64,000 nucleotides of DNA from Candidatus Lindowbacteria bacterium RIFCSPLOWO2_12_FULL_62_27. Its GTDB lineage: Bacteria > Lindowbacteria > 2-12-FULL-62-27. Positions 16,043 to 35,464 of this stretch are shown one piece after another. Within the stretch, counting starts at the first letter, position 1, and each line of letters starts with the position of its first letter. The stretch lies in contig MFPR01000017.1 of the NCBI GenBank assembly GCA_001784175.1, positions 29,024 to 93,023 on the forward strand, read 5' to 3'. The notes under the pieces are model-generated. The model saw only the letters and a list, made by a program, of their open reading frames with translations. It made no database searches and was not told the DNA's origin. A program made the position numbers and the translations under genes.

Positions 16043-16672
16043 ATGGACAAACTCACGTTTGCAGGAATCATCCTCGCCGTCCAGCCCAGAATCCGCCTGA
16101 TCCGTTCGTTCGATCAGAGCAGTCACGCCTATCTGGGATTCGTCTTGCGGATCAGAGGTACGCTGGCCGGTCAGGAACGCGAATTCACCGTGGGCATCGG
16201 CAATGCCGCCCATGCCAAACACCAGTTCCGCGCCGGCGACGCCATCAGCGGCGAATGCCTTCCGGTAGCCGACCCAGAAAAAGAGCCGGTCGATTATTAC
16301 AAAACCAGCAAATTGAAACTCACCGCCCGCCCGGAACAGTCGCCGCCGTCCGCGCCTCCGCCATGGCTCGGCATCCCGCCGACCTTGCCGACCTACCGCG
16401 CCCGAGGCCACCGCCGCCTGGCCGCCCGCACCTACGACACCCAGTGCCTCACGTGTATATGGGCCTGCCGTATGTCCGTCGAAATGATCATCGACCACTG
16501 GAACCCGTCCAAAAAACGCTACCGCACCGAAACCTTCTGTTACGGTCCCAAATCCTGCCCCCTCTACAAACCCGGCCCCACCCGCAAAGTCCCCGGCCGA
16601 CGCGGCATGAGCTGGACAGAAGAGGACTGGGTTGATGAGCAAGCGACTGCCCATAGAGGGGAGCACGACTAA
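16043..16672 (+). CDS. hypothetical cysteine-rich protein
   Basis: ATG at 16043 follows the upstream stop by 16 bp; CLTCIWAC and CYGPKSCP motifs; no known family recognised. Confidence 0.4.
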   Translation: MDKLTFAGIILAVQPRIRLIRSFDQSSHAYLGFVLRIRGTLAGQEREFTVGIGNAAHAKHQFRAGDAISGECLPVADPEKEPVDYYKTSKLKLTARPEQSPPSAPPPWLGIPPTLPTYRARGHRRLAARTYDTQCLTCIWACRMSVEMIIDHWNPSKKRYRTETFCYGPKSCPLYKPGPTRKVPGRRGMSWTEEDWVDEQATAHRGEHD

Positions 16673-16676
16673 GCGC

Positions 16677-17693
16677 ATGCAGATTCCTGTCCTCCGCTCC
16701 GGCGAACAGATCACGAATCTACCCGCCGCGCTTGGTTCCCTCAAGGAAACGCGGCTGACCGCATTCCTCGCCTATCTCATGGGTCTTTGCCCACAGCCAT
16801 TCACTGATCTGTTCCTGGACGAGAGCGAAAAAATATCAAGAATTCTTATCGAGTACGCGGAATACGATGGGCGCTATGACATCGTCCTGGAGGGCATCAA
16901 AACCACAACGATTATTGAGGCCAAGACCACCTTTGAGCAGTCCAGAAAGCAGATCACGAAATATATTTCCACGCTCGCTCGCCGTAAGGGACAACATTTC
17001 AAGGTTGTCCTGCTGGATGTGGGGTCCAAGGCATCCAGCTACTGGATGCGCGACATGCGCGACGAACTGCCTCCCAACTGCCAAATCGACTTTGTCTCTT
17101 GGAATCAAGTGCTGGCAAAACTACGATGGGTCTTGAAGTCCAAATACATTCGGCGGCTTTCGCCATTTGCGCAAGGACTCGCCGCAGATATAATCACGCA
17201 CCTAAAGGAGAACGCCATGGTCAAAGAACGCGAAGGTGAAATATACGTGAGAGACATGAGCGGCCGATCCGTCGAACTGTTTTTCCGCCACCGGATATAC
17301 AGATCCCAACCGAAGTTCTATAACTCGGCCAAGGGGAACCTCTATTTTTCTCCGATCTTCACCCACGCGGCGAACCTGTCCTTTGCAGGCCACGAATACA
17401 TGAACCTGCGTGACGGCCTCTCGTACATCGCCAAAATCAGGCACCTCGAAATTGTCCCCAATAAACACATGAAGGAATTTCTGATGGATCACGATCATCC
17501 AAACGCGGCCGAGGCGGCAAAATTCAGCCTCAAAGGCGCCAAACACAAAACGCTGCTGGTGCTATTGCTCGACCGACCCCACCGGCTGTTCCTGACACCG
17601 CTGACCAAAACAAAATTGAACATCCATGGCGCCACGGGATCCAGATCATTCACCTTGGATCGACTGCTGACCGCCGCCGAATCCGGGAGGTAG
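16677..17693 (+). CDS. hypothetical protein with PD-(D/E)xK nuclease-like motif, immediately upstream of hsdR
   Basis: YDGRYDIVLEGIKTTTIIEAKT matches a D-x(n)-E-x-K core; GGGGAG ribosome-binding site before ATG 16677; stop lies 10 bp before the hsdR start. Confidence 0.45.
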   Translation: MQIPVLRSGEQITNLPAALGSLKETRLTAFLAYLMGLCPQPFTDLFLDESEKISRILIEYAEYDGRYDIVLEGIKTTTIIEAKTTFEQSRKQITKYISTLARRKGQHFKVVLLDVGSKASSYWMRDMRDELPPNCQIDFVSWNQVLAKLRWVLKSKYIRRLSPFAQGLAADIITHLKENAMVKEREGEIYVRDMSGRSVELFFRHRIYRSQPKFYNSAKGNLYFSPIFTHAANLSFAGHEYMNLRDGLSYIAKIRHLEIVPNKHMKEFLMDHDHPNAAEAAKFSLKGAKHKTLLVLLLDRPHRLFLTPLTKTKLNIHGATGSRSFTLDRLLTAAESGR

Positions 17694-17702
17694 TCGGAAC
17701 GC

Positions 17703-20387
17703 ATGACGCAGGACGAAGCCGAGTGGAAGACCCGTAAAGAGCGAATCGACAAACGTCTCAAATTGCTCAACCCCGCGTGGTCCATCATCCATTACAAAGA
17801 AGGCATGGACACGTCCGTCCTGAAAGCCCACGCCGTCGAGGAGTATCCGACCCAAAACGGCCCCGCCGACTACGCGCTGTTTGTCGCCGGACGCCTTCTC
17901 GGTATACTTGAAGCAAAAAAAGTCGGTGTCGGCCCGCAGAATGTCCTCGAACAGGCCAAACGCTATGCCAAGGGTGTCACGGACGGATCTGGAAACTGGA
18001 ACGGCTTTCGCGTCCCGTTTCTATATTCCTCCAACGGCGAACTCATTTTCCACGCCGACGTCCGATCCGGCAAAATCATTTCACGCCAGCTGGCCGATTT
18101 CCATACGCCGGCCGCGCTCGCTGATTTTTTTGCTCACGCTCCCGACGCCGGCCACGCATGGCTGAAATCCACGCCGAATACGATTGATAAACTCCGCGAC
18201 TACCAAAAAAAGGCCATCGCCGCCTGTGAGTCGGCCATCCTCTCCGGCAAACGCGCCATGCTCGTCGCGATGGCAACTGGCACCGGCAAAACGTTCATGA
18301 CCGTCGCCCAAGTTTACCGCCAGCTGGAATCCAAGGCCGCCCGCCGAATCCTCTTTCTCGTCGACCGCAAAGCCCTCGCCGCGCAGGCTGTCCGCGCTTT
18401 CGCGTCGTTCCAGACGCCCCGAGGAAACAAATTCGATCAGGAGTACGAAGTTTACAGCCAGAAGTTTCGCAAGGAGGATTTCGGCGATGATGAGCCATAT
18501 GATCCGAAGCTGTTGCCGACCGAATACTTGACCAAACCGGACGCTTCAAAAACATTCGTCTATGTCTGCACCATCCAGCGCATGGCCATCAATCTCCTCG
18601 GAAAGCAGGCCTATCAGTCTGGAGGCGAAAGCGGAGAGGACGATGAGGATGCGGACAAACTCGATATTCCGATTCATGCCTTTGACGTGGTCATCGCCGA
18701 TGAGTGCCATCGCGGCTACACTTCCAAAGAAACCGGCATCTGGCGGCAGGTGCTCGACTATTTCGACGCCGTGAAAATCGGCCTGACCGCCACGCCGGCC
18801 GCCCACTCCCTGACCCTTTTCAGGGAGGTCGTCTACCGCTACACGACCGACGAGGCCATTGACGACGGCTGGCTCGTCGAATATGAACCGGTCAAAATCA
18901 ACTCGAACGTCCGCATGCAGGGCGCATTTCTCAAGGAAGGCGAACTCGTTGGCCGCGTCGACACGGAAACCGGCGTGGAAAAACTCGACGAGCTGGAGGA
19001 TGAGCGCGCCTACGACAGCAGTCAGATCGAAAGAGACATCACCGCGCCGGACAGCAACCGCAAAATTATCGCGGAAATCGCCAAATATGCTCTCGCCCAT
19101 GAAACCGAAACAGGCCGCTTTCCGAAAATCCTGATCTTCGCCGCCAACGATATCCCTCACACGTCCCACGCGCAACAACTCGTGAATATCGCGCGCGAGG
19201 TGTTCAACCGGGGGGATGACTTCGTCCAGAAAATCACCGGCGCCAAGGACGTCGACCGGCCGCTTCAGAGAATACGCGAGTTCCGAAACCGCCCCGAGCC
19301 TAAAATCGTTGTAACCGTCGACATGCTCTCAACCGGCGTCGACGTACCGGCCATCGAGTTCATCGTTTTTCTGCGCCCCGTAAAATCCCGCATCCTCTGG
19401 ACGCAGATGCTCGGACGCGGCACCCGCCGCTGTGACGCCATCAACAAAAAGAAGTTCGTCATCTTCGACTGCTTTAACGGCACGCTCATCGAATACTTCA
19501 AAAACTCCACCGATTTCAAAATCGAAATGCAGAAGGATACCGTGCCGATCGAAGAGGTCATCGAAAATATTTACAACAACGTCGACCGTGACTATCACGT
19601 CAAAGTCCTGGTACGCCGTCTGCGCCGTATTGAGCGCGATATGAGCGGCGAAGCCCGCGAACGGTTCGCGGCTTTTATTCCCGAGGGAGACATCGGCAAA
19701 TTCGCCGGCGACATCCCCCGCGCGATCAAGGCCGACTTCTCCGGCGCTATGAAACTGCTTCGCGACAAGAATTTTCAGGAACTCCTGCTGAATTACCCAA
19801 AGGCCAAACGAACTTTTTTGAAGGGATACGAGATCCAGGACACGGTCTCGTCGGAATTGGTCTTTCGCATGGGATCGGAATACAAAAAACCGGAAGACTA
19901 TCTGGTCTTGTTTGATCGGTTCGTCAAGGAACATCAAAACGAGATCGAAGCCATTCGCATCCTGCTGGCCCGGCCCAAAAAATGGAATCCGAAAGCGCTC
20001 GATGAATTGAAAAAGAAACTCGAACAGAACCAGTTCCGGCTATCGGACCTCCAAAAAGCCCACCGGCTCGTGTACCATAAGGACTTGGCCGACATCATTT
20101 CGATGATCAAGCATGCCGTGCGCAAGGAAGAGCCGGTTTTGTCGGCGGAAGAGCGGGTTGACCGCGCCATGAGCAATGTCACTTCAGGCAAGACATTCAC
20201 CGCCGAACAGCGCCAATGGCTGGATCTCATCCGCCACCATCTCGTGGAGAACCTGACGCTCGATCAGGAGGATTTCGACCTCGCGCCCATCTTCGAACAG
20301 CGCGGAGGCCTCGCCGTCGCCCGCAATGTCTTCCGTGACCGATTTGATTCTCTCATCGAGGAGATCAACTATGCCCTCGCGGCGTGA
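17703..20387 (+). CDS. hsdR: type I restriction enzyme R subunit
   Basis: N-terminal PD-(D/E)xK region (ADYALF...GILEAKK), SF2 helicase motifs MATGTGKT, DECH, GLTATP, arginine-finger-like QMLGRGTRR. Confidence 0.9.
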   Translation: MTQDEAEWKTRKERIDKRLKLLNPAWSIIHYKEGMDTSVLKAHAVEEYPTQNGPADYALFVAGRLLGILEAKKVGVGPQNVLEQAKRYAKGVTDGSGNWNGFRVPFLYSSNGELIFHADVRSGKIISRQLADFHTPAALADFFAHAPDAGHAWLKSTPNTIDKLRDYQKKAIAACESAILSGKRAMLVAMATGTGKTFMTVAQVYRQLESKAARRILFLVDRKALAAQAVRAFASFQTPRGNKFDQEYEVYSQKFRKEDFGDDEPYDPKLLPTEYLTKPDASKTFVYVCTIQRMAINLLGKQAYQSGGESGEDDEDADKLDIPIHAFDVVIADECHRGYTSKETGIWRQVLDYFDAVKIGLTATPAAHSLTLFREVVYRYTTDEAIDDGWLVEYEPVKINSNVRMQGAFLKEGELVGRVDTETGVEKLDELEDERAYDSSQIERDITAPDSNRKIIAEIAKYALAHETETGRFPKILIFAANDIPHTSHAQQLVNIAREVFNRGDDFVQKITGAKDVDRPLQRIREFRNRPEPKIVVTVDMLSTGVDVPAIEFIVFLRPVKSRILWTQMLGRGTRRCDAINKKKFVIFDCFNGTLIEYFKNSTDFKIEMQKDTVPIEEVIENIYNNVDRDYHVKVLVRRLRRIERDMSGEARERFAAFIPEGDIGKFAGDIPRAIKADFSGAMKLLRDKNFQELLLNYPKAKRTFLKGYEIQDTVSSELVFRMGSEYKKPEDYLVLFDRFVKEHQNEIEAIRILLARPKKWNPKALDELKKKLEQNQFRLSDLQKAHRLVYHKDLADIISMIKHAVRKEEPVLSAEERVDRAMSNVTSGKTFTAEQRQWLDLIRHHLVENLTLDQEDFDLAPIFEQRGGLAVARNVFRDRFDSLIEEINYALAA

Positions 20388-20440
20388 TTTCAATCTCCTC
20401 CCCCCTTGCGGGGGAGGCTGGGTGGGGGGTCGAGGACAAC

Positions 20441-21856
20441 ATGTCTGACATCGTCAACAAACTCTGGGGCTTTTGCCACACCCTCCGCCACGATGGCATC
20501 GATTACGGCGACTACATCGAACAGCTCACGTATCTGCTCTTCCTCAAAATGGCCGACGAACGCGAGGTCGTCATTCCCAAGGGCTTCGACTGGAATAGCC
20601 TCAAGACACGCTCCGGCACCGACTTGACCGACCACTACGCCGAAATCCTCCGAAAACTGCGCGAGGAAAAGGGACTGCTCGGCGACATCTTCGCCCAGTC
20701 CATGCCCCGGTTCAATAATCCCGTCAATCTCAAACGCCTCGTCACCATGATCGACGAGGAACACTGGTCGGCGATGGATGTCGACGTGAAAGGCGCCTGT
20801 TTCGAGGGACTGCTCGAGAAGGCGGCCAGCGAAGGCAAGAAAGGCGCCGGGCAATATTTCACGCCGCGCGTGCTCATTCAGTCGGTTGTCCGCGTCATGA
20901 AACCCGACCCGCGCGCCCGGACGGATTTCACCCTCTGCGACCCCGCCTGCGGCAGCGGTGGATTTCTCATGTCCGCCTATGAATGGCTCATGGGCGTCAC
21001 GAAAGGCGCGCTGGAGCGCGGCGAGATCAAACGCATCAAGACCAAGACCTACTTCGGCCAGGACCTCGTCCCGCGTCCCCGTCGCCTCGCGCTCATGAAT
21101 CTATATCTCCACGGCATCGTCCCAAAAATTTATCTCGGCGATGCCATCTATGAGCCCGATCGCGGCGAACTCTATGACTGCGTCCTCACCAACCCGCCCT
21201 TCGGCACCAAAGGCGCCAATCAAGCCCCTGACCGCGAGGATTTCACAATCGAGACCAGCAACAAACAGCTCAACTTTGTCCAGCACGTCGTGAACATCCT
21301 CAAAGACGGCGGCCGCGCCGCGATGGTTCTGCCGGACAACTGTCTCTTCGAAGGCAAAGCCGGCGAGGTCTTCAAGATTCTGATGCAGGACTGCAACCTC
21401 CACACGGTCCTGCGCCTGCCGCGCGGCACCTTCACGCCCTACAGTCAGGGCGTCAAAGCCAACGTCGTCTTTTTCCAAAAAGGCGTGAAGACCGAACACG
21501 TCTGGATTTTCGACGCCCGATCCAACGTCCCCGGCATCACCAAAAAAGACCGCCCCCTCGCCCGCGCGCACTTCGAGGAATTCGAAAAATGCTACGGCAA
21601 AGATCCCAACGGCCAGAGCAAACGCGAGGACACCGGCGAGTCGGGCCGGTTCCGCAAGTTCCACATCAGCGACATCGAAAACCGCGACTACAAACTCGAC
21701 ATCACCTGGCTCAAGGACGATTCCCTCGAAGACGCCGACGACCTCCCCGCCCCGGAAGAACTGGCCGCCGAAGCCATCACCGAACTCGAAGCCGCTGTGG
21801 ATGAACTCAAGGCAATCGTGGCACTTGTGGAAAATAATGAGGGCGTTGAGAAATGA
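20441..21856 (+). CDS. hsdM: type I restriction-modification N6-adenine DNA methyltransferase
   Basis: AdoMet motif DPACGSGGFL and catalytic NPPFG; N-terminus MSDIVNKLW typical of HsdM; ORF-track GTG at 20384 overlaps the hsdR stop. Confidence 0.9.
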   Translation: MSDIVNKLWGFCHTLRHDGIDYGDYIEQLTYLLFLKMADEREVVIPKGFDWNSLKTRSGTDLTDHYAEILRKLREEKGLLGDIFAQSMPRFNNPVNLKRLVTMIDEEHWSAMDVDVKGACFEGLLEKAASEGKKGAGQYFTPRVLIQSVVRVMKPDPRARTDFTLCDPACGSGGFLMSAYEWLMGVTKGALERGEIKRIKTKTYFGQDLVPRPRRLALMNLYLHGIVPKIYLGDAIYEPDRGELYDCVLTNPPFGTKGANQAPDREDFTIETSNKQLNFVQHVVNILKDGGRAAMVLPDNCLFEGKAGEVFKILMQDCNLHTVLRLPRGTFTPYSQGVKANVVFFQKGVKTEHVWIFDARSNVPGITKKDRPLARAHFEEFEKCYGKDPNGQSKREDTGESGRFRKFHISDIENRDYKLDITWLKDDSLEDADDLPAPEELAAEAITELEAAVDELKAIVALVENNEGVEK

Positions 21857-23358
21857 CCGACGAAATCCCGCTAGGGTGGACAAAAGCTCATATCTCCGAG
21901 ATATGTGATGTGTCGAAGGAACGCGGACGTGAGGGAATTACACCGTACCTCGAGATAGGGAACGTCGATATTGTGTCCAAGCGATACATGTTCACTGACA
22001 AGCTTTCGGTTAGAGGCTGTCAGATGGCGAAGCAAGATGATGTTCTTATTTCAAGGGTGAGACCAACCCGTGGGGCGATCGTTTGGATTCGTGAGAGCGA
22101 ATTGCACGTGTCTTCGGCTTTCACTGTACTGCGAGATTGTGGGACACTTTCAAAAAAATATCTTTGGTTATTTCTTGCTTGGAATCGTGCCTACCTCAAC
22201 CACCTTGGCGATAACTGCACTGGAACTATGTATCCGACCACTTCAGAGGATGCGATTACTGACTTTGATGTCCCTATCGCTCCACTTGCCGAGCAGAAGC
22301 GGATCGTCGAAAAACTGGACGCGGTGATGGCGCGGCTGGAGGCGTGCAAGTCCCGGCTGGCCCTCATCCCGCCCCTCCTCAAACGTTTCCGCCAATCCGT
22401 CCTCTCCGCCGCCTGCTCCGGGAAACTCACAGCCGATTGGCGCGAGCAAAATTTAATTATAGAAAATGCTGATGCTCTGCTCGACAGGATTAGAGAGAAG
22501 CGATTGGCATCAGCTCCGACCAAAAAAGAGAAGGCACGGATTGATGAAGTATTTGACGAGGGGAATCTGCGTATTGACGAGGGAGACCTTGGACTGGATG
22601 AGATTCCTGACACTTGGTTTGGCTGCCGCGTCGGCGCCGTTGGCGCGGTCTCCAACGGCAGCACGCCATCACGAAAGCGGCCGGATTTTTGGGGCGGAGC
22701 AATTCCGTGGGTCAGTTCGGGCGAAGTACGTAACAATATCATCTCGGCAACGCGCGAACGAATTACCAAAGCGGGCTACGAAGATAGTTCCGTGCGCCTC
22801 CTGCCCCGTGGCACCGTCCTGCTTGCCATGATTGGCGAGGGGAAAACCAGAGGGCAGACAGCCATCCTCCACATCGAGGCTACGATTAACCAGAACATCG
22901 CCGCCGTTGTTTTGGATCACGGTTTGCTTAGCTCCGCATACTTGTGGCGATGGTTTCAACTGCAATACGAAGCAACGCGAGAACGAGGCAGCGGGTCCGG
23001 CCCGCAGGCGTTGAACTGTCAACGAGTCCGTGAACTGCCCTTTGTTCTGCCCCCGTTGCCCGAACAACACGAAATCGTCTGTCGAGTGGAGGCGTTGTTC
23101 GCGATTGCGGACAAGATCGCGGAGCGCTACAAAAACGCCAAAGCCAACGTGGACAAACTGGCCCAATCCATCCTCACCAAAGCCTTCCGCGGCGAACTCT
23201 TGCCGCAGGACCCCTCAGACGAACCAGCCTCCTTACTCCTTGAGCGCATCCGCACACAGCGCATCAGCCGGGAAGCGCAGCAGAGCACCTCGAAGAAATC
23301 TCATCGGAATGGAATCAAAAGAGTGGCAAGACAGATACATAAGACTTTGAAAATATGA
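21853..23358 (+). CDS. hsdS: type I restriction-modification specificity subunit
   Basis: 4-bp overlap with hsdM; two target-recognition-domain halves separated by a conserved helical spacer (LAEQKRIVEKLDAVMARLE and LPEQHEIVCRVEALFAIADKI). Confidence 0.85.
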   Translation: MTDEIPLGWTKAHISEICDVSKERGREGITPYLEIGNVDIVSKRYMFTDKLSVRGCQMAKQDDVLISRVRPTRGAIVWIRESELHVSSAFTVLRDCGTLSKKYLWLFLAWNRAYLNHLGDNCTGTMYPTTSEDAITDFDVPIAPLAEQKRIVEKLDAVMARLEACKSRLALIPPLLKRFRQSVLSAACSGKLTADWREQNLIIENADALLDRIREKRLASAPTKKEKARIDEVFDEGNLRIDEGDLGLDEIPDTWFGCRVGAVGAVSNGSTPSRKRPDFWGGAIPWVSSGEVRNNIISATRERITKAGYEDSSVRLLPRGTVLLAMIGEGKTRGQTAILHIEATINQNIAAVVLDHGLLSSAYLWRWFQLQYEATRERGSGSGPQALNCQRVRELPFVLPPLPEQHEIVCRVEALFAIADKIAERYKNAKANVDKLAQSILTKAFRGELLPQDPSDEPASLLLERIRTQRISREAQQSTSKKSHRNGIKRVARQIHKTLKI

Positions 23359-23518
23359 ACATTACGCAATTGGCCTTTTATCTGAGTCTCACTCGTCGTC
23401 TCATTGGCACAACTACCATCCTTTCAACTGATTATGCTATTTTATTACATATACCTTGCCATTTGTTAAGTTTTATATTAGCAATGTCGATAGATGAAAT
23501 TAAGCGCCGGGTGGCCAT

Positions 23519-23893
23519 TTGAATACCACGGTTCTGCATGTTGGCGAAAAGTTGAAGGTCGAGGCGGTGCTCAATCCCGACGGAAAATGTCCGGCGCAGG
23601 AATTTTTGGATGAGCAGTTGGAAAGTGACAGGCAGAAAATCAAGGCCTTATTTTTCATGGTTGCTCTCAAGGGCAATCAGTTTCGAAACGGGGAGAAATT
23701 CAAGAAGCTCGATGGCGAAATTTTCGAATTCAAGAGTTATCAAATTCGCCTCCTCTGTTTCTTTCACAGAGGCGGCAGGTTGATCATCACTCACGGACTC
23801 ATCAAACAGACGGATAACATGCGAAGAGGGGAAATCGAGAAGGCGGAGCGAATCCGCCAACAGTTTCTTGCGGAGGAGGTTTCCCATGGCTGA
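23519..23893 (+). CDS. higB: HigB/RelE-superfamily toxin (Gp49-like)
   Basis: EFKSYQIRLLCFFHRGGRLIITHGLIKQTD resembles the Gp49-like/HigB fold; overlaps the downstream HTH gene. Confidence 0.55.
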   Translation: MNTTVLHVGEKLKVEAVLNPDGKCPAQEFLDEQLESDRQKIKALFFMVALKGNQFRNGEKFKKLDGEIFEFKSYQIRLLCFFHRGGRLIITHGLIKQTDNMRRGEIEKAERIRQQFLAEEVSHG

Positions 23894-24284
23894 AGAAACG
23901 TGGTTTGAAAAGCATCACAAAACCGACGAGGAGAAGCGGCTGTTCGCGCAGGAAGTCGCCATTCTGTCCGCGCTTGAAGAAGTCTGCCGGGTGATGGAAA
24001 CGGAAAACGTCTCCCGGGCGGACATGGCGACCAAACTCGGAAAAAGCCGGGCGTTTGTAACCCAGGTGCTGCGCGGCAGCAACAACATCACGATTCGTAC
24101 GCTCGCCGATTTCGCATGGGCCTGCGGCCGCACCGTCGATATCCGACTTCGCAAAGGCGCCGGACATAACTTCGAGCCGACCGTGTATGCCGAGTGGAAA
24201 GAGTCGGCGGAAACGCAGGCGACGGTCAACCCGTCGGGACCGGCTCAACAAGTAGAAGATTTGGAATCGTCGCTGGCAGGATGA
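23886..24284 (+). CDS. higA: HigA-like HTH antitoxin with C-terminal extension
   Basis: HTH MATKLGKSRAFVTQVLRGSNNITIRTLADFA; aromatic-containing C-terminal tail (EPTVYAEWKES) compatible with a chaperone-addiction region; 8-bp overlap with toxin gene. Confidence 0.55.
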   Translation: MAEETWFEKHHKTDEEKRLFAQEVAILSALEEVCRVMETENVSRADMATKLGKSRAFVTQVLRGSNNITIRTLADFAWACGRTVDIRLRKGAGHNFEPTVYAEWKESAETQATVNPSGPAQQVEDLESSLAG

Positions 24285-24754
24285 CGCCGGAACTCAAAAC
24301 GGCGGCCAAGGTTGCCGCCGTCTCACAGATTCAGAACGTCCGATTGACGTTTGTGCACTCCGATCTGCAACCCGGATTCGAAAAAGTTCTAAACGGAAAA
24401 TCCGAGATTCAGATTGACCACCGGATGACGGAATATATCGTTCGTGAAGACGAACTCCAACTCATCCTCGAATTCAAACTAAAGATCGTTGTTGAATCCG
24501 CAGAGGAGAAGACCGCCCCTCAACCTGGGGAAACTTCCACTCCGCCTCTCGAAATCCACGCAAAATTCTGCGTTGACTACACGGTCAAAGATCTCAAGAC
24601 TTTTTCTGAACAGGACATTCAGGCCTTCGCAAAAATCAACGCCGTTTTCAATTCGTGGCCCTACTGGCGGGAAATCGTCCAATCCACATTTTGGCGCATG
24701 GGCCTGCCGCCGTTCGTCATCCCCGTATTCCGGATGCCGCTGAAGTCAGATTAG
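24281..24754 (+). CDS. SecB-like chaperone of a TAC system
   Basis: AFAKINAVFNSWPYWREIVQSTFWRMGLPPFVIPVF parallels the SecB C-terminal conserved region; ATGA overlap with higA-like stop. Confidence 0.6.
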   Translation: MTPELKTAAKVAAVSQIQNVRLTFVHSDLQPGFEKVLNGKSEIQIDHRMTEYIVREDELQLILEFKLKIVVESAEEKTAPQPGETSTPPLEIHAKFCVDYTVKDLKTFSEQDIQAFAKINAVFNSWPYWREIVQSTFWRMGLPPFVIPVFRMPLKSD

Positions 24755-24767
24755 GCCGGCATTTCAT

Positions 24768-25592
24768 TCACACCTGCTCGACGCTAAACCCCTGCTTGAA
24801 TCTGACTGTCTTGCCGCACTTCGCACAACCCGCCGTCGCGCCATTCAGCACACGGTGCTTTCCGACAAAATTCTCCGCATCGCATGATGGGCACGGGTAT
24901 TTGACCTGCCGGAGGTGGACAATTATTTCATTGCCTTTGCCGGGTTCTACGTCGTAAACCGCTTGGCAGTTGGTGATGGGACACTTCACTCCCCCTTCGG
25001 CTGTGAAACTGCCGGCGCGACGCTGTATCTGCTCTCCGCAGTCTTGGCACTGAAACTCGAAAAACTGTCCGAAATTAACCCTGAAAATCGGCGACGTCAA
25101 AATTGCCTCGCACTCATCGGCAACGGCCGCCGCCCGCTTGATCATTCCAGCCAGATTGGAAGTTTTGCCGGACTCGATCTGGTGGATCGTTAGAGCGTGG
25201 AGAAAATTCCCCAGCGCGTTGTGGTTATCGTTGGCCCACTTCCGCGAAAACCTTCTGTCCTGCCCCAGCATCTGCATTTCCTCGCCCGGTGGCGGGACAC
25301 CGTACGTGTGTTCGATCCCAACCGCCAAGCTGACGCTCTGGTCGGCATGCGGGTCAACTTCGCGCATCTCTGAAATTACGTGTCTGGGCTGCCACTTCTT
25401 GAGCGCATCATTTGGAACTTCTTTCAGGTACGCCAGCAGTTGATCATAGGTGATGTACTCAATCGTGAGACGCAACTCGAGGCAGGCATACCGGACAGAA
25501 GGTTCATCGCCCTTTGCCAACAAATTCCTTGCACGAGCGAGACATTCGCGGGCCACGCATCGCATATCGGGCACGGTTATCGTCGCCGTCAT
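24768..25592 (-). CDS. hypothetical protein with C-terminal multi-zinc-ribbon region
   Basis: Helical N-terminal half; C-terminal CQDCGEQ, CPITNC, CPSCDAEN, CAKCGK cysteine pairs. Confidence 0.5.
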   Translation of the reverse strand: MTATITVPDMRCVARECLARARNLLAKGDEPSVRYACLELRLTIEYITYDQLLAYLKEVPNDALKKWQPRHVISEMREVDPHADQSVSLAVGIEHTYGVPPPGEEMQMLGQDRRFSRKWANDNHNALGNFLHALTIHQIESGKTSNLAGMIKRAAAVADECEAILTSPIFRVNFGQFFEFQCQDCGEQIQRRAGSFTAEGGVKCPITNCQAVYDVEPGKGNEIIVHLRQVKYPCPSCDAENFVGKHRVLNGATAGCAKCGKTVRFKQGFSVEQV

Positions 25593-26146
25593 TTTGCCCC
25601 TCCCCCGGTGGCGTGAGTTATTCTGCCTGTTTTCGGCGGCCCAAACCCACCGGCTTCATCCTTCTTCCGAATAATCTCCTCCTGGTCTTTCTTGGCCTGT
25701 TTTGCCGTGTGCTTATCGCCTCTTCTTGAAGCCTCACTTTCCTCAACGACTTTTCTGGAAAAGGCTTTATCCAAGTCTTCAAAATTCTTAGGAGTCATTT
25801 CGTATTCCTCCTTTAATTGTTCGTTGCAGGACGTGTCAAAGGCCGCCCGCAAGTCAGTTTCCTTATCCAGCCGTGAATCCTCGTCGCTATCGACGTGAAC
25901 ACAAATACAGTTGCCGCCATTCTTCTCAACACATGGCCATTTCTCGTGGGATGGGATCCTATCCGAGAGGGAATCGGTTTGGCCGATATAACGAGGCGTA
26001 TGTGTGCCTCCGTTCGATCCGACCACACGTTTGCTGAATATGTAGACAGCCCCGACATCTTTGAACCTCGTGTCTGTGGTATATGCTTGGAACTTGTACT
26101 CCGTGCCACTTCCTCCTGCAAAAGTAACGTCAGAAATTTTTGACAT
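25589..26146 (-). CDS. GIY-YIG-like nuclease-domain protein
   Basis: GAVYIFSKR ... PRYIGQTDSLSDRIPSH matches the GIY-(10-11)-YIG plus Arg pattern; 4-bp overlap with the downstream zinc-ribbon gene. Confidence 0.45.
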   Translation of the reverse strand: MSKISDVTFAGGSGTEYKFQAYTTDTRFKDVGAVYIFSKRVVGSNGGTHTPRYIGQTDSLSDRIPSHEKWPCVEKNGGNCICVHVDSDEDSRLDKETDLRAAFDTSCNEQLKEEYEMTPKNFEDLDKAFSRKVVEESEASRRGDKHTAKQAKKDQEEIIRKKDEAGGFGPPKTGRITHATGGGAK

Positions 26147-26438
26147 GTGAAACTCCTTCATTATCGAAGCCCGCGGCTGCCGGCGGTCCCAGCCACCGAG
26201 GTGCTCATTGTCATCAAGCTTATGTCGTCTGCAACGCGACGACGTTCTGACCGTTCACGTAAACGTGCGCAACCCGTCGACCATCTAAATCGATGGCCTT
26301 GCTGCACAAAAAAACACTCATCACAGGGGTCGTTTCCCCCCTCTCCTCGACTGGATTGCTCTTGCTGTACGGAAGGCCGCCATGCTAACGTCACTCTGGA
26401 CTAGTGAGGGACGGGGGCGGCCTGCCGGATGCGCAAGC

Positions 26439-26881: not shown

Positions 26882-28012
26882 ATGAAAGGTCTTCCGTTTA
26901 TAGGCCAATTGGCCAAAATGTCACTGAAATCTCACAACCAAGAGGCCACCCCTTATGTGGAGGCGCTTATCCGTTTGGCCGAGGAAGAAGGGGATGTTAA
27001 ATCGGCCAAGAAACTGGCGGCAATCCTCGAAGATGCCCGAAAACGGGGATTTGTCGGGTCTAATTCGTCCTCGTCGCCCGGTGATCGATATCCGATGACA
27101 ACGTCTTCCGCGACAATGGAAATGCCTGTATCGATATCGAAATTCCTGGAAGACTCCCTGCCGGCGCCGCCGGAACGGCCGACTCTGGATGCTTCCGTAT
27201 CGCAAGGTATTCGAGATTATATTTTTCATGCTTCACATGGATTGAAGGAGAACATCTTTTTTGTCGGACCTTCGGGTACAGGCAAGACCTTGACGGCTGC
27301 ATGGCTTGCCGCACAATTGGAAAAGCCGTTGTATCGTCTGGCTTATCCTCGGGTCTTCGATAGTTATCTTGGCAGAACCGCTAGAAATCTGGTCGCGGCG
27401 TTCGAGGAGGTTAAACTCCTGGGTGGGATCCTTTTTATTGACGAGGTGGACGCCATTTTGAGGTCTCGGGAACTTACAGGCGACCACGGCGAGATGCAGC
27501 GGACGGTCAATGTGCTGCTCATGGAAATCGATAGAGCCCGCGATGAATTACCGATCTTTGCCGCGACCAATCTGTTCCATAAGGTGGATACGGCGGTGGC
27601 CAGACGATTTCATCTGATACTCCACTTCAATTTGCCCTCTGACTTTTTGCGCGAGCATTATGTTCGACTGAAGGTGAAACAATATATTCCTTCGTACCTG
27701 ATGACGTCTTTGATCAGGCTGACGGAAGGATTCTCCTACGCGGATTTGGAAAAGTTGCTTGGTTGCATGCCGGATTTCGATTTACCTCCGACCGCGTTTT
27801 GGCCGGAATTCTTGCGCGTTCTTTCACAAACGTCGCCACCCGCGACCGCTCAATCTATTTCAGAATTCGCGCATTCGCCATCCCCGATACAGGCGAGAAA
27901 GCTGATTGAATGGGGTGTGGAGAAACAAGTCGTCACTCAGATGTTTGGGATATCTTCTGCCCTTCTGACGAAATGGATTCAGGGAGAGAAGCTGGAGGTA
28001 GTCCATGGCTGA
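26882..28012 (+). CDS. AAA+ ATPase (IetA-like)
   Basis: Walker A GPSGTGKT, Walker B ILFIDEVD, sensor region AATNLFHKVD. Confidence 0.75.
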   Translation: MKGLPFIGQLAKMSLKSHNQEATPYVEALIRLAEEEGDVKSAKKLAAILEDARKRGFVGSNSSSSPGDRYPMTTSSATMEMPVSISKFLEDSLPAPPERPTLDASVSQGIRDYIFHASHGLKENIFFVGPSGTGKTLTAAWLAAQLEKPLYRLAYPRVFDSYLGRTARNLVAAFEEVKLLGGILFIDEVDAILRSRELTGDHGEMQRTVNVLLMEIDRARDELPIFAATNLFHKVDTAVARRFHLILHFNLPSDFLREHYVRLKVKQYIPSYLMTSLIRLTEGFSYADLEKLLGCMPDFDLPPTAFWPEFLRVLSQTSPPATAQSISEFAHSPSPIQARKLIEWGVEKQVVTQMFGISSALLTKWIQGEKLEVVHG

Positions 28013-30413
28013 CGAACCGGGTCGGCCGCGAAGCAGCATCCTCCGGGTTGATAAGCGGAAACAGAGGACGAAAGAGTTTACCGATAAGCGGACTGGGGGT
28101 GGGTATAAAAAGATTTTTCCGGATGTACAAGAACGCTTGACCTTCGTCGCCCATCAACTGGATATCGCCATCGACGATTACAAGTCCGCTTACGCCCTGA
28201 CGGAGTCATCCGCCCCGTACCTGGTATTTGAATTGCAGCCATCGGCCATCGCCAAATCTCACAGCGCCTTGGACGTGTTAAATGATTGCGGGCTCGAAGT
28301 CGTTGCCACTCGGACTCTGGAGGAGAAGATTGTGCATGGGGTCGAAGGGGCCTTTAAGCGGCTCGGGGGCGATTTGGTGATGGCCGCGAAAGATGCCCCG
28401 ACGGACGAACAACTCAAAAAATTGGATGCGGAAGATAAGGAGATTCGGAAGATAAAAAGGGAAGAAAAACGACTTGGAAAAGAAAGTGATGCCAAGAAAA
28501 CGGTTCACCGCTATCTGCCGGGTGGGAAGTTTTCATGGAACGAGGTGGCCCAGTTCTCAACGTTCCGGAATGTCGGGTTCATACGTCCTGAAGAGAAAAT
28601 GATGGTTCCGGCCAATTTCGAATCGGCGCCGGTCTTTGTCTCGACATTCCCGTTGTGTGACAGCGCAAACGACGACATCAGAATATGGATTACATGCATT
28701 GATAGCATCATCAAGAAATACAAAACGGGTATCCGTGTTTTACGCGCCAATAAGAAATTCATGGAAAATATACAGGAACACGCGTCGGGTTTGGAATGCG
28801 ATTGGAATTTTAAAGTGAATCGGGAATACAAATCCCATCAAAAATCCTTTGTGTTTCTGATTGAAAATGCGGGTGTCAAAGCGGTGCGTGAGTTGGCCGG
28901 GTGCGAGTTTGTGCGTACGGTGGCTTTGGGACATATCCAAACAGATGTGTTGCGCGCATCTTCAAAGTTGTCCATACCATCCCCGCCTGCGGCGATTCGA
29001 TCTTTGCCGGCGGCGGGGTTGGTGGACACGGGTATTGCATCTCCTTCAAAATTGGATCCCTATATCACTTTCCGTGGTGGAGAAAATACTATCCGCAATA
29101 AAAAAGTGTTTCATGCAACGGACGTGGCCTATCTCCTTGTCCACAATGGCGCCGCCACGCCTTGGAAACCGGACGTGGCCGGATTGCCGTGTGCCATCCG
29201 CGACGTGGCCAGAATTGATGGTGGAGACGTTGACGGGGATCAGCTGCGGGCGGCCATCTGGGAGGCAACCCGGGATTCGTCGGGGGATGGAACTGTGAAT
29301 TTTTCGGCATATGTGAACGAGGGGAGGCGGGCGAAGCCTACGCCGGAAGTCTCTGTGTTTGGTGAACTGTTGGATGATATGTCATTGGAGGCCGAAAATC
29401 TCATGATCGTTTGTTCCGCCGGTAATTCCGGATCGGTGGGAATGGATTCTCCCGCCGACGGAGTTCATGTGGTTTCCGTAGGTGCCTTTACCCGCACACC
29501 GCAAGGAAACTTTGTACGGTCGGATTACTCCTGTCACGGCGGCGGGATCGCGCACAATGCCAAGCCCACTTTTGTTGTACCTGTCCATGACTTGAATAAT
29601 AAGGATTCTACCTGGGATACACTCATTCCATCGGGTTCGCCTGGCACAAGTTTCGCTGCTCCGGTTGCCACGCGAGTTCACGCCGGCCTACGGCATCGTG
29701 GATATAATCGAGATGAAGCTTTGGCGCTGATGGTGCACCACGCAAAACATCCGGGGAAGGATGTTTATTACAAGCCATCGTCAAAAGAAATTGAGGAGTT
29801 TGGGTTTGGGGTGGTTCCTTCTATCAATGAATGCGACCCGCCGGATGGTTCGAGGATAACGTTGATCTACGATGTTCCCGTCAAACTCGGCAAATTTTAT
29901 GAATTGAGATTGCCGATACCGCAAGAGCTTTCGGATTATTCGGCATTTGCCCGTCTGACTGCATACACTCGCGCGCCATGCAGCCGAGAAATGGGTGAGG
30001 AATATGTTGCCGCCGAGGTTCCGACACATCTGAGAATGTATAAAAAAGAGGTCAAAAAGAATGGAGTGCCATATGTGGATTTGCCGCCGGAGCCGGTCGA
30101 CTGGAAAGCCCGATACGAGGAACATCGCATTAAATATGGATGGAAATGGGGCACGCTGAGGCGATATAGCAAGACCATCCGGTTCGGAAAATATAAAGAA
30201 TTTGCTCTAAGGATTGGTCCGGTTATATGGCGGAAATGGGTACCAGGGACTGTGAAAGGACAAGAAACAAAGGTGCAGTGTGTTCTTTCGTTTTATCCGC
30301 TTGAGGGCGAAGCACCGCCGTTTTTTGATTTCTTCCGCAGGGCGTTTGTTGCCGCGCAGGTGGAAGTGGAGGTTCCATTGGAGGTGCAAATCGAATTGGA
30401 AGGTGAAAGTTGA
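28005..30413 (+). CDS. S8 subtilisin-family serine peptidase with N-terminal non-catalytic region (IetS-like)
   Basis: Asp motif GLVDTGIASP, His region FHATDVAYLLV, Asn CSAGNSGS, Ser GTSFAAPVA; 8-bp overlap with the ATPase gene. Confidence 0.75.
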   Translation: MADEPGRPRSSILRVDKRKQRTKEFTDKRTGGGYKKIFPDVQERLTFVAHQLDIAIDDYKSAYALTESSAPYLVFELQPSAIAKSHSALDVLNDCGLEVVATRTLEEKIVHGVEGAFKRLGGDLVMAAKDAPTDEQLKKLDAEDKEIRKIKREEKRLGKESDAKKTVHRYLPGGKFSWNEVAQFSTFRNVGFIRPEEKMMVPANFESAPVFVSTFPLCDSANDDIRIWITCIDSIIKKYKTGIRVLRANKKFMENIQEHASGLECDWNFKVNREYKSHQKSFVFLIENAGVKAVRELAGCEFVRTVALGHIQTDVLRASSKLSIPSPPAAIRSLPAAGLVDTGIASPSKLDPYITFRGGENTIRNKKVFHATDVAYLLVHNGAATPWKPDVAGLPCAIRDVARIDGGDVDGDQLRAAIWEATRDSSGDGTVNFSAYVNEGRRAKPTPEVSVFGELLDDMSLEAENLMIVCSAGNSGSVGMDSPADGVHVVSVGAFTRTPQGNFVRSDYSCHGGGIAHNAKPTFVVPVHDLNNKDSTWDTLIPSGSPGTSFAAPVATRVHAGLRHRGYNRDEALALMVHHAKHPGKDVYYKPSSKEIEEFGFGVVPSINECDPPDGSRITLIYDVPVKLGKFYELRLPIPQELSDYSAFARLTAYTRAPCSREMGEEYVAAEVPTHLRMYKKEVKKNGVPYVDLPPEPVDWKARYEEHRIKYGWKWGTLRRYSKTIRFGKYKEFALRIGPVIWRKWVPGTVKGQETKVQCVLSFYPLEGEAPPFFDFFRRAFVAAQVEVEVPLEVQIELEGES

Positions 30414-31075
30414 TGTCCCGTATACTCTTGAACCTCCCCCCTCACGACCGCCCCCGCGAGAAATTCAAAGCCAAAGGCTCCGAATCCCTGTCCGACCAGG
30501 AGCTATTGGCCATCCTGCTTGGCAGCGGCACCAAAAAATCGGACGTTTTGAAAGTCGCCGAACATATACTCAAAGAGATCGACGGCTCTAAGAAAAAATG
30601 GAGGTTGGCGGATCTTCAGAAAATCGAAGGTGTCGGCGAAGCCAAGGCCATGCAGATTCTGGCTGCGATGGAGTTTGCCCGGCGCCGCATCCAGCCCGCC
30701 GGATTTAAAATCTCGTTCCCGGCTGACGTCGTCCCCCTCATTCGCCACTACGCCGACCGCAAACAAGAACATCTGATCTGCGTCACTCTGAACGGCGCAA
30801 ACGAAATCATCGCCACCCGCGTCGTTACGGTCGGCCTCGCCGACAAAATCCAAGTCCACCCCCGTGAACTCTTCGCCGACCCCCTGACCGACCGCGCCAC
30901 CGCCGTCATCATCGCCCACAATCATACCGGCTCGGACCTCATCCCGACCCGCGAAGACATCGAGACCACCCGCCGCCTCAAGGCCGCCGGCGAAACGATT
31001 GGCATCAAATTGCTCGACCACATCATATTCAACAAAACCGGCTATTACAGTTTTCTCGAGAAAGATAATTTGTGA
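30410..31075 (+). CDS. radC: RadC-like JAB/MPN domain protein
   Basis: N-terminal HhH-like LSDQELLAILLGSG and JAB motif AVIIAHNHTGSDLIPTREDIETTRRL; ATGA overlap with subtilase stop. Confidence 0.8.
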   Translation: MMSRILLNLPPHDRPREKFKAKGSESLSDQELLAILLGSGTKKSDVLKVAEHILKEIDGSKKKWRLADLQKIEGVGEAKAMQILAAMEFARRRIQPAGFKISFPADVVPLIRHYADRKQEHLICVTLNGANEIIATRVVTVGLADKIQVHPRELFADPLTDRATAVIIAHNHTGSDLIPTREDIETTRRLKAAGETIGIKLLDHIIFNKTGYYSFLEKDNL

Positions 31076-31088
31076 ATTGAGGTAATCC

Positions 31089-32723
31089 ATGGCCACCGGT
31101 CGCAATCAGCCGTGCCCCTGCGGAAGCGCAAGGAAATACAAGAGGTGTTGCGGCAATCCGCTAAAAATGTCGCTTAAGGGCATTCATCGCCCGACAGAAA
31201 GCCGCGTCGCGGACGGAATCGCCAAAGCGCTCGAACATCACAAGGCCTCTGAACTCATCCGATGTCAACAGCAGGGACTGGGCAAGCCGATCATCTCTAC
31301 AGAACATCAGGGCAGGCGCCTCGTGGCTGTTGGAAACAAAGTCTACCATTCGACCAAATTCAAAACATTCCCTGATTTTCTGTTCGCTTATGTAAAAGGC
31401 AAACTCGGTTCGGAGTGGGGCAATGCGGAGATCGTCAAGCCCCTGGAGGAGAGGCATATTATTCTGCAATGGTACAACGAGTATTACCTCTTCCAAAAAC
31501 GGCACTTCGACAAAGACCACGAAATCCAGTCTTTTCCGGCAACGGGTGTGGTCAATTGTTATCTCGGCCTTGCCTACAGTCTGTACTTGCTGGAGCACAA
31601 CGTCGAGCTCCAGGACCGTTTGCTCAAACGGCTAAAAGACTCGGCAAATTTCCAGGGAGCGTATTACGAATTAATCGTCGCAAACTGTCTGATTCGAGCC
31701 GGATTTGATTTGGTTCTCGAAGATGAAACCGATCGTGCCTCGAAGCATTGTGAATTTTCCGCCGTTTCACAGAAGACTGGAAAAAAATACTGGGTCGAAG
31801 CCAAGATGCGGGCGGTTTCCGGCATTCTCGGTAAATCCGACCATGACGGCACCCAATCGTTGGAACCGACTTCCTCGCTGATACAGCATGTGAACAAGGC
31901 GCTTGCAAAGCCGGCGGCGGATGAACGACTCATTTTCATCGATCTCAACACCGATCCGCCCGACGGGCAGAGTCTGCCGGATTGGATGGAACGAGCCGCA
32001 CAAAAACTTGAAGGCCTCGAAAAAACTTACCAAAAAGGGGAGCGCGCTTATATTTTTGTGACGAACATGGCGTTTCACCGGCGCTTGACGGACGCCCGCC
32101 CGGCTGGCGCCGTTTTGGTTCACGGATTTGGAATTCCCGATTTTGGAAGGCCGGGGGAATATCGGCTTACGGAAATTTACAGGAAAAGACAAAAACATAA
32201 GGATGCCTATCACATTTTTGAAGCCGTCAAAGAATATCCGAAATTTCCTTCGACGTTTGACGGTAGTTTGCCATCCGAAACCTTTGGTGATGGAGGTGGT
32301 CGCATTATTATTGGAGAAACGTATTTTTTTCCTGATATGGACGAGAAGGGAATTACAGGGACCGTCACTTCTGCCATGGTGAGTGAAACTGAAAAGACAG
32401 AACATTTGGGCATTACGACAAAAGATAACGGGTCATTTATTCTCAGCAGGCCGATGACAGAGGCGGAACTGACAGATTACAAAAACCATCCCGAGGCGTT
32501 TTTTGGTGTGATTCTTCAACCACCAGGGAACGCGAATGACCCGTACGAATTATTTGAATTTTTTGTTGGATGTTATAAAAACTCGTCTAAAGAGAAATTG
32601 CTAGAATTTTTAAAGGATTCGCAGGACACCGACTCCCTCGCGGCGTTGCCTCATATGGATTTGGTACTCGAATACTGCGAACGATTGGTCGCTGCCGCAG
32701 TGGCTGGCCAAGAAAACAGATGA
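31089..32723 (+). CDS. SEC-C-motif protein with PD-(D/E)xK-like core
   Basis: N-terminal NQPCPCGSARKYKRCCG; central FDLVLEDETD ... KYWVEAKM resembling a D-E-K nuclease triad. Confidence 0.55.
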   Translation: MATGRNQPCPCGSARKYKRCCGNPLKMSLKGIHRPTESRVADGIAKALEHHKASELIRCQQQGLGKPIISTEHQGRRLVAVGNKVYHSTKFKTFPDFLFAYVKGKLGSEWGNAEIVKPLEERHIILQWYNEYYLFQKRHFDKDHEIQSFPATGVVNCYLGLAYSLYLLEHNVELQDRLLKRLKDSANFQGAYYELIVANCLIRAGFDLVLEDETDRASKHCEFSAVSQKTGKKYWVEAKMRAVSGILGKSDHDGTQSLEPTSSLIQHVNKALAKPAADERLIFIDLNTDPPDGQSLPDWMERAAQKLEGLEKTYQKGERAYIFVTNMAFHRRLTDARPAGAVLVHGFGIPDFGRPGEYRLTEIYRKRQKHKDAYHIFEAVKEYPKFPSTFDGSLPSETFGDGGGRIIIGETYFFPDMDEKGITGTVTSAMVSETEKTEHLGITTKDNGSFILSRPMTEAELTDYKNHPEAFFGVILQPPGNANDPYELFEFFVGCYKNSSKEKLLEFLKDSQDTDSLAALPHMDLVLEYCERLVAAAVAGQENR

Positions 32724-35380: not shown

Positions 35381-35464
35381 GGGGAGGTGCTCCAGTGGAC
35401 AACGAGAGCAGACTGTAAATCTGCCGCCCTTCGGGCTACGGAGGTTCGAATCCTCCCCTCCCCA
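35381..35464 (+). tRNA. tRNA-Tyr (anticodon GTA), class II with long variable arm
   Basis: Acceptor stem GGGGAGG/CCTCCCC, anticodon stem GCAGA/TCTGC with loop CTGTAAA, variable-arm hairpin GCCC-ttcg-GGGC, T-arm GGAGG-TTCGAAT-CCTCC, discriminator A; CCA not encoded. Confidence 0.8.

Follow-up and report, generated by a model that had tools for sequence, protein, structure and literature searches.

Three overlapping genes at positions 23519–24754 of a 64,000-nucleotide stretch from Candidatus Lindowbacteria bacterium RIFCSPLOWO2_12_FULL_62_27 (GenBank assembly GCA_001784175.1, contig MFPR01000017.1, positions 29,024–93,023 of the forward strand; hereafter the window) encode products whose identical counterparts carry the label 'hypothetical protein' in a Candidatus Lindowbacteria metagenome-assembled genome (MAG). 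The question that this locus raises is whether the three genes constitute a toxin–antitoxin–chaperone (TAC) module, as an original prediction made from the DNA alone had proposed, with a HigB-like toxin (gene 1), a HigA-like antitoxin (gene 2), and a SecB-like chaperone (gene 3). Sequence comparison and structure modeling make it very probable that they do, the module being of the HigB–HigA–SecB-TA type. Of the features that define a HigBA-type TAC, the locus shows all those open to in silico testing.

Organization of the three-gene unit

The three genes are co-directional, and both overlaps claimed for them reappear in the sequence and in the mechanical list of open reading frames (ORFs): 8 bp between genes 1 and 2 (23886–23893) and 4 bp (ATGA) between genes 2 and 3 (24281–24284). 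A strong Shine–Dalgarno sequence, GGAGGAGG at 23872–23879, stands ahead of gene 2. The ORF list also contains longer alternatives, starting at TTG 23868 for gene 2 and at GTG 24194 for gene 3; we prefer the ATG starts (Table 1) because a close relative at 80–94% identity, locus L081, was called with the same 132- and 157-residue products and the same 4-bp overlap. Judging from this layout, genes 1–3 are translationally coupled. Their predicted position directly downstream of hsdS, the last gene of a Type I restriction–modification (R-M) operon, holds as well, with 160 bp separating it from gene 1, and co-transcription of the TAC with hsdRMS is possible.

Gene 3 is predicted to be a SecB-fold chaperone closest to Rv1957

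Searched against the PDB by phmmer, gene 3 recovered Rv1957, the chaperone of the Mycobacterium tuberculosis TAC, as its top hit (5mtw; E = 0.001). Very few relatives of either gene 2 or gene 3 came out of word-indexed searches, and an exhaustive HMMER search was needed; with gene 3 as query, this retrieved 2,494 cluster representatives (50% identity clusters) at E ≤ 0.001. A profile of 65 homologs, run against the PDB, matched only Rv1957, at E = 1.2e-16 and over nearly the full length; canonical SecB sequences in that database were not reached at E ≤ 1. The AlphaFold (AF2) model built from that alignment has a mean confidence (predicted local distance difference test, pLDDT) of 92.3 and displays the four-stranded sheet and long helix of the SecB architecture. 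In Foldseek the best matches were the four chains of 5mtw (E = 9e-9 to 5e-8; TM score 0.65–0.80), a structure of Rv1957 together with its chaperone-addiction (ChAD) peptide, followed by the SecB structures 1fx3, 1ozb, and 1qyn from Haemophilus influenzae and Escherichia coli (E = 1e-6 to 4e-5; TM score 0.6–0.75). Fold similarity to SecB, on which the original prediction had staked its case, is thus found, first to Rv1957 and then to SecB itself.

That prediction had also aligned the C-terminal half of gene 3 by eye to the conserved SecB core. Comparison by hhalign with E. coli SecB reproduces the same register over the gene 3 stretch SWPYWREIVQSTFWRMGLPPFVI, in a match of 23 columns at a probability of 12% that is insignificant alone, and the Pfam SecB model covers the same stretch below its threshold. 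Since the hhalign match spans so few columns at so low a probability, it is the fold, and not the sequence, that carries the case for homology to canonical SecB. The profile search suggested as a check came out in favor of the prediction: the Pfam SecB model stayed under its cut-off, but the family profile found Rv1957 with the strong E-value given above. We judge the resemblance of gene 3 to SecB to be real, with profile and modeled-fold evidence needed to give it significance.

Residues of Rv1957 that mutagenesis identified as required for toxin–antitoxin (TA) control, namely R29, E143, R151, and L154-P155-P156 (PMC6377645), correspond by sequence alignment to R21, E131, R139, and L142-P143-P144 of gene 3, and the position of M. 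tuberculosis D27 is occupied by an asparagine (N19). These pocket counterparts are mostly invariant or nearly so in the clade, with the LPP motif, R139, E131, and a VRL motif conserved. The PADLOC chaperone model PD-T4-9_C (PD-T4-9/CmdTAC) also matches gene 3 (E = 9e-4). The Pfam SecB model PF02556, applied at E < 0.01, captures 6 of 65 sampled clade members and misses the other 59. Taken together, alignment and modeling indicate that gene 3 adopts a SecB fold, matches the chaperone of the mycobacterial TAC most closely, and retains the ChAD-pocket residues.

Gene 2 resembles HigA and carries a candidate chaperone-addiction tail

The Pfam helix–turn–helix (HTH) models HTH_3, HTH_31, and HTH_37 match residues 27–88 of gene 2 just under their cut-offs. 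At the profile level, a 68-sequence gene 2 family matched HigA in the PDB (4mct, E = 1.1e-6; also 4mcx, 6chv, 6cf1, and 6af3_B), and the PADLOC model PDC-M64B matches gene 2 at 1.6e-7. The sequence evidence thus points to gene 2 working like HigA, as an Xre-HTH antitoxin that lies outside the TIGR02607 equivalog. A different identity, that of a controller (C) protein of the upstream Type I R-M operon, would fit the short distance to hsdS, the R-M controllers that top a single-sequence PDB search (weakly, at E = 0.18–1.4), and the weak matches to PADLOC 'Control_protein' models (E = 0.01). However, HigA is the best match once profiles are used, with C.BclI close behind at 2.5e-6; gene 2 lies downstream of hsdS and overlaps the HigB toxin and chaperone genes; and 78 of the 80 related loci described below have no hsd gene nearby. 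We rejected the controller identity on the non-significant PDB matches, the TA operon position, and the loci that lack hsd, and accord it next to no probability.

Past the HTH domain, the HigA-like antitoxin extends into a tail of ~43 residues (90–132), KGAGHNFEPTVYAEWKESAETQATVNPSGPAQQVEDLESSLAG, which includes Y101, W104 (Trp codon 24195–24197), and a C-terminal Leu-Ala-Gly (24273–24281). For tail statistics we drew on 68 antitoxins from chaperone-bearing loci. Their tails are unalignable except for one column, which is Trp in 58/68 and aromatic in 64/68 and in which the window residue is W104. Compared with the folded domain, the tails are ~8-fold enriched in tryptophan, and the first Trp falls 15–20 residues into the tail, usually with a polar residue before it and a small one after. 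The clade favors the context Q-W-A/T, and the window has E-W-K. The C-terminal dipeptide is AA in 42 antitoxins, AG in 9 (the window included), AS in 8, and VA in 5, together 64 of the 68. Both the YAxWK and the LESSLAG motifs of the window tail are kept in L081.

Two chaperone-less antitoxins serve as comparators. Streptococcus pneumoniae HigA is 97 residues long, ends right after the HTH domain, and has no tail. The metagenomic locus L082 pairs a Gp49 toxin with a 114-residue antitoxin that is 48% identical to gene 2 over the HTH domain and ends in ...KLRQR, in a tail without Trp; the gene after it, from a reading of its N-terminal sequence only, resembles tRNA-dihydrouridine synthase. Among published ChADs, the M. 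tuberculosis peptide EVPTWHRLSSYRG buries W108 and Y114 in chaperone pockets (PMC6377645), and the E. coli HigBAC element has aromatic residues that follow a polar and precede a small residue (bioRxiv 10.1101/2024.02.24.581848). ClpX degrons have been described as Val-Ala at the end of M. tuberculosis HigA1 and Ala-Ala at the end of CmdA, and are not universal among TACs. The search for a ChAD motif that had been recommended for the HigA tail accordingly turned up two features of the kind that the literature describes, a Trp conserved in the tail and small residues at the C-terminus, and the expected Xre-HTH antitoxin with an aromatic-containing extension is confirmed by the HigA profile matches and the conserved tail Trp. 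From its sequence and modeled disorder, we propose the gene 2 tail as a candidate ChAD element that fits the published descriptions.

Gene 1 belongs to the Gp49/HigB toxin family

Gene 1 matches Pfam Gp49 (PF05973) above its gathering threshold (E = 5.6e-9; 36.4 bits, cut-off 23.9), as do 58 of 65 syntenic members of its family; NCBIfam held no match for it. By phmmer it recovers S. pneumoniae HigB (6af3, E = 3e-4), which the family profile reaches in the PDB at 7.6e-12; the same profile is marginal against M. tuberculosis HigB1 (7awk/7nbu, E = 0.015). In M. tuberculosis HigB, residues K58, E66, R68, R77, and K95 contact the A-site codon, and alanine at the basic ones abolishes toxicity (PMC9098466). 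Their aligned equivalents in gene 1 are K62, E70, K72, R77, and K96, of which R77 is invariant in the family and K72 and K96, together with F71, are present in at least 90% of its members. The Gp49/HigB-like toxin call is therefore upheld by the Pfam score and by profile matches to HigB structures, and by its sequence gene 1 is a RelE-fold toxin of the Gp49/HigB family, predicted to keep the mRNA-cutting residues of M. tuberculosis HigB.

Conservation of the cassette across phyla

A scan of GTDB representative genomes yielded 80 loci with gene 3 homologs, 78 of them with enough upstream sequence for comparison. Planctomycetota, Acidobacteriota, Binatia, and NC10 supply most of the 80; a few belong to Pseudomonadota, and one comes from an archaeal MAG. 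Immediately upstream and on the same strand, a gene 2 homolog is present in 67/78 loci, and in 64/78 it is itself preceded by a gene 1 homolog. The proposed mycobacterial-type architecture is thereby substantiated, with the toxin–antitoxin–chaperone order in 64 loci and Rv1957 as the best chaperone match. Most of the remaining loci have TA genes of other types in front of the same chaperone clade, ~600–1100 bases upstream of the match in four of them: MqsA-type antitoxins in L013, L036, and L056, and an HTH antitoxin with a DUF6932 protein in L004. A tail that contains W and closes with AA, AS, VA, or VG recurs in most of the 11 unmatched, non-HigA antitoxins; it consequently follows the chaperone and not the antitoxin family. 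Modularity of this kind has been reported for TACs (PMC5105189).

Mobile elements carry related genes as well. On the Acinetobacter plasmid NZ_CP039151.1 (L086), an MqsA antitoxin gene overlaps a gene annotated as 'preprotein translocase subunit SecB'. The lambdoid Escherichia phage PhiR70_1 (PV340577.1; L087) has three unannotated genes at 587–2109, in the cI–kil interval, with products of ~136, 195, and 167 residues; the last two genes overlap, and the last is a gene 3 homolog. This block is probably a phage-borne TAC.

These surroundings bear on a simpler explanation, namely that the window holds an ordinary two-gene HigBA system with an unrelated or housekeeping SecB export chaperone downstream by chance. 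The SecB fold is generic, canonical SecBs are strong structural matches to gene 3, and the RefSeq name of the plasmid relatives is that of a translocase subunit. Against it stand the ATGA overlap with gene 2, the recurrence of the toxin–antitoxin–chaperone order in several phyla, a family profile that matches the TA-associated Rv1957 and not canonical SecB, an antitoxin bearing the additional tail that a client of the chaperone should have, and an operon context that argues for a dedicated TA role. We regard a chance SecB neighbor as highly improbable and retain the TAC assignment.

The window cassette and that of L081 are 83–94% identical at the nucleotide level. Ratios of nonsynonymous to synonymous substitution rates (dN/dS) against L081 are 0.09 for the toxin (over the 86 codons present in L081), 0.18 for the whole antitoxin, and 0.13 for the chaperone; within the antitoxin, the HTH domain stands at 0.07 and the tail at 0.50. 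By these ratios, genes 1, 2, and 3 each evolve under purifying selection. The similarity ends at the gene 3 stop codon, with unrelated genes downstream, which marks the unit as a discrete cassette. These values also address the suspicion that the module is a decayed, non-functional TAC remnant, to which the TTG start of gene 1, the lack of a recognizable promoter, and the C-terminal Ala-Gly in place of Ala-Ala might point. The three frames are nevertheless intact, the catalytic and pocket residues are kept, and the whole-gene dN/dS values are low; and because the L081 antitoxin has the same LAG terminus, the Ala-Gly end is conserved rather than a lesion. Decay is, in our estimate, very unlikely.

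Evidence against the TAC assignment

Several points weigh against reading the locus as a TAC. The evidence on the locus and its immediate clade is wholly in silico. Gene 3 falls below the Pfam SecB threshold (PF02556: E = 0.057, 13.8 bits with the cut-off at 26, residues 103–147), has no match in NCBIfam, and is 15–18% identical to Rv1957. Gene 2 scores 22.4 bits against HTH_3 (cut-off 23) and falls far short of the NCBIfam HigA equivalog TIGR02607 (12.1 bits, cut-off 47.7). As the thresholds that failed are those of Pfam SecB and TIGR02607, we take the two proteins for divergent sub-families rather than for proteins that work differently. The disorder call for the tail, from an AlphaFold model of gene 2 with pLDDT 63–90 at residues 1–89 and below 50 at 90–110 and 118–132, is limited by a shallow alignment of 6 sequences.

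The tail itself departs from characterized examples: the window antitoxin ends in Ala-Gly and not in an Ala-Ala or Val-Ala ClpX degron, and it has a single Trp (YAEWKES), as against two W-x-R motifs in M. tuberculosis and four aromatic short linear motifs (SLiMs) in E. coli HigA. Inactivation of E. coli HigBAC is, moreover, ClpXP-independent (bioRxiv 10.1101/2024.02.24.581848). The counts over the 68 antitoxins overstate the number of independent observations, because these sequences are phylogenetically clustered and many come from Planctomycetota, and the absence of the tail in chaperone-less HigA is drawn from the two comparators L082 and S. pneumoniae. Lastly, the module lacks a discernible promoter or operator: searches for promoters, operators, and terminators over ~23200–25000 gave nothing convincing, and the hsdS–gene 1 spacer (23359–23518) contains no sigma-70-like site, no plus-strand terminator, and no palindrome of at least 5 bases.

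Genomic setting

The module lies in a region rich in defense genes (Table 1). The Mu-like portal gene hints at a prophage, or the remains of one, upstream of the defense island. At the other end, the tyrosine recombinase next to tRNA-Tyr appears to mark the border of an integrative island that carries the R-M system, the TAC, and IetAS; to the right of the tRNA gene follow housekeeping genes encoding a class IV aminotransferase, RuvX, and YceG. Positions 1–36000 were scanned for att-like direct repeats of the island, and no such repeat of at least 16 nt turned up. The IetA and IetS genes overlap by 8 bp and match the IetAS antiphage system.

Table 1. Coordinates of the TAC genes and neighboring features in the window
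Feature	Position	Strand	Remarks
Portal_Mu protein	12545–13906	-	Mu-like portal; Pfam E = 5e-8
HTH_25 protein	15610–16026	+	Just upstream of hsdR
353-residue protein	16632–17693	+	No family; just upstream of hsdR
hsdR	17703–20387	+	Type I R-M
hsdM	20384–21856	+	Type I R-M
hsdS	21853–23358	+	Type I R-M
hsdS–gene 1 spacer	23359–23518	+	AT-rich, 160 bp; presumed regulatory region
Gene 1, HigB-like toxin	23519–23893	+	TTG start, 124 aa; Gp49/DUF891, RelE/ParE superfamily
Gene 2, HigA-like antitoxin	23886–24284	+	ATG start, 132 aa; Xre-HTH
Antitoxin C-terminal tail	24153–24281	+	Residues 90–132 of gene 2; candidate ChAD
Gene 3, SecB-like chaperone	24281–24754	+	ATG start, 157 aa; TA-associated, SecB-TA type
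274-residue protein	24768–25592	-	Cys pairs suggestive of zinc ribbons
190-residue protein	25589–26161	-	Overlaps the 274-residue gene
IetA	26882–28012	+	AAA ATPase; PADLOC E = 6e-44; Pfam AAA
IetS	28005–30413	+	Subtilase-like; PADLOC E = 1e-39; Pfam Peptidase_S8
RadC-like JAB protein	30410–31075	+	
SEC-C-motif protein	31089–32723	+	544 aa; motif at residues 5–23
Tyrosine recombinase	34163–35335	+	Phage-integrase family
tRNA-Tyr(GTA)	35381–35464	+	46 bp from the recombinase

The genes for the 274- and 190-residue proteins run convergently toward the TAC and stop 14 bp beyond the end of gene 3. Neither product can be placed with significance in a Pfam or PADLOC family, and none of the related loci has either of them. 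The SEC-C motif is the peptide of SecA that binds canonical SecB. It is curious to find this motif 6 kb away from the gene for a SecB-like protein, yet none of the 80 related loci has the SEC-C protein together with the TAC. A linkage of the TAC to IetAS, RadC, the SEC-C protein, or the two convergent ORFs was rejected, as none of them co-occurs with it in those loci.

The R-M genes are a partial exception. Among the 80 loci, hsd genes stand beside the TAC in L024 alone, an NC10 MAG contig (CAVOIV010000047.1; 2–2023 and 2169–3500) from a different phylum that has the same hsdM–hsdS–toxin–antitoxin–chaperone order as the window; of all the representative genomes, it also contains the nearest homologs of the toxin and the antitoxin. 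The shared arrangement may represent a co-transferred unit of R-M and TAC. Because L024 preserves this order and no terminator separates hsdS from gene 1, one can also imagine functional coupling, in which the TAC would act as a second-line suicide or guard module that fires when a phage neutralizes or escapes restriction. EcoprrI–PrrC is an analogue for such an R-M-guarding suicide module, and by that analogy coupling is conceivable, though we consider it doubtful.

Comparison with characterized systems

The closest counterpart is the M. tuberculosis TAC (HigB1 Rv1955, HigA1 Rv1956, and Rv1957; 5mtw, 7awk, and 7nbu), with which the window shares the gene order and overlapping or tightly linked genes, a Gp49/HigB toxin with equivalents of K58, E66, R68, R77, and K95, an Xre-HTH antitoxin with a Trp-containing C-terminal extension of ~45 residues that is disordered (in the window, by prediction), and a chaperone for which Rv1957 is the best match by sequence profile and by fold, down to the Leu-Pro-Pro, Arg, and Glu pocket residues. 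The two differ in the low chaperone identity and the marginal toxin profile match already noted; in the tail, where the window has one Trp and an Ala-Gly end against two W-x-R motifs and Val-Ala; in the pocket, where N19 replaces D27; and in the host, which is here an uncultured Lindowbacteria MAG with a defense-island setting.

HigBAC of E. coli NT1F31 (Mets et al., bioRxiv 10.1101/2024.02.24.581848), compared here by its published description, has the same HigB–HigA–SecB-TA make-up and provides the model for triggering by phage-protein competition for the chaperone. It differs in a ChAD of 96 residues with four aromatic SLiMs and in inactivation that does not depend on ClpXP. The antiphage CmdTAC/PD-T4-9 system of E. 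coli is linked to the window by the PD-T4-9_C match of gene 3 and by CmdA, which ends in a ClpX-recognized Ala-Ala like 42/68 antitoxins of the window clade; its toxin, in contrast, is an mRNA ADP-ribosyltransferase and not a HigB RNase, and its antitoxin family is different.

Two further systems resemble single components. Two-component HigBA of S. pneumoniae (6af3/6af4) contains the best solved match of the toxin family and a HigA that matches the antitoxin profile, but it is without a chaperone gene and its HigA without a tail. Canonical SecB (PF02556; 1qyn, 1fx3, and 1ozb) shares the predicted fold of gene 3, and its helix-1 motif aligns in the by-eye register, whereas gene 3 scores under the Pfam gathering threshold and sits inside a TA operon rather than standing alone.

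Proposed mechanism and biological role

If the module works as its M. tuberculosis and E. coli counterparts do, the gene 3 chaperone would bind, as a tetramer, the Trp-centered aromatic motif of the antitoxin tail. The bound chaperone would keep the antitoxin soluble and hide its C-terminus from ClpXP-type proteolysis, and the antitoxin so protected would silence the HigB toxin and probably repress the operon. Were the chaperone diverted, the antitoxin would aggregate or be degraded. The most plausible competitor would be an unfolded phage structural protein with a similar aromatic pattern, or alternatively stress-denatured clients; in E. coli HigBAC, the chaperone is drawn away by a nascent tail protein of the phage, which shows a similar aromatic pattern (bioRxiv 10.1101/2024.02.24.581848). 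The freed toxin, presumed to be a ribosome-dependent mRNase, would cleave mRNA in the A site and bring translation and growth to a stop, with abortive infection or dormancy as the outcome.

What the module is for is less settled than what it is. A role in phage defense is suggested because it sits between Type I R-M and IetAS on an integrase-bearing island, and we give that role about an even chance. The same module could instead serve the addiction or stabilization of the island or of the R-M system, or act as a stress-responsive growth brake, the role originally put forward for the M. tuberculosis TAC; the tyrosine recombinase and tRNA-Tyr that bound the island fit such a role, the conserved hsdM–hsdS–TAC order in L024 is consistent with a co-travelling unit, and TACs were first described as stress-responsive and horizontally transferred (PMC3581621). 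The flanks, however, are defense systems, and the two roles are not mutually exclusive. We hold addiction or stress response to be possible, if on the unlikely side, and continue to entertain phage defense as the role of the module.

Significance for SecB-like chaperones and their antitoxins

The M. tuberculosis TAC has been known since 2011, and the antiphage systems HigBAC and CmdTAC joined it in 2022–2024; because they are already an established class, the locus adds no new principle. What is modestly new lies at the level of the clade: a large SecB-TA lineage most of which Pfam SecB misses, a simple tail signature of Trp and Ala-Ala common to several antitoxin families, and an R-M linkage that is possible and thinly supported. 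From their sequences, the chaperones bearing the N-x-WPYWRE...GLPP pattern may form a SecB-TA lineage of their own, few members of which the Pfam SecB model recognizes; this is a less far-reaching proposal than the coupling of R-M and TAC, and one that we consider more likely. This clade would co-evolve with a portable tail, of one Trp plus a terminal Ala-Ala, that is grafted on both HigA-type and MqsA-type antitoxins.

For the organism, the assignment means that three 'hypothetical proteins' of a candidate-phylum genome become annotatable. For the family, it exposes a large SecB-like clade that is common in Planctomycetota, Acidobacteriota, Binatia, and NC10. A Trp 15–20 residues into the tail, combined with an Ala-Ala-type end, offers a simple signature that could find chaperone-addicted antitoxins, and the pattern supports the idea that ChAD recognition is coupled to protease gating in many TACs.

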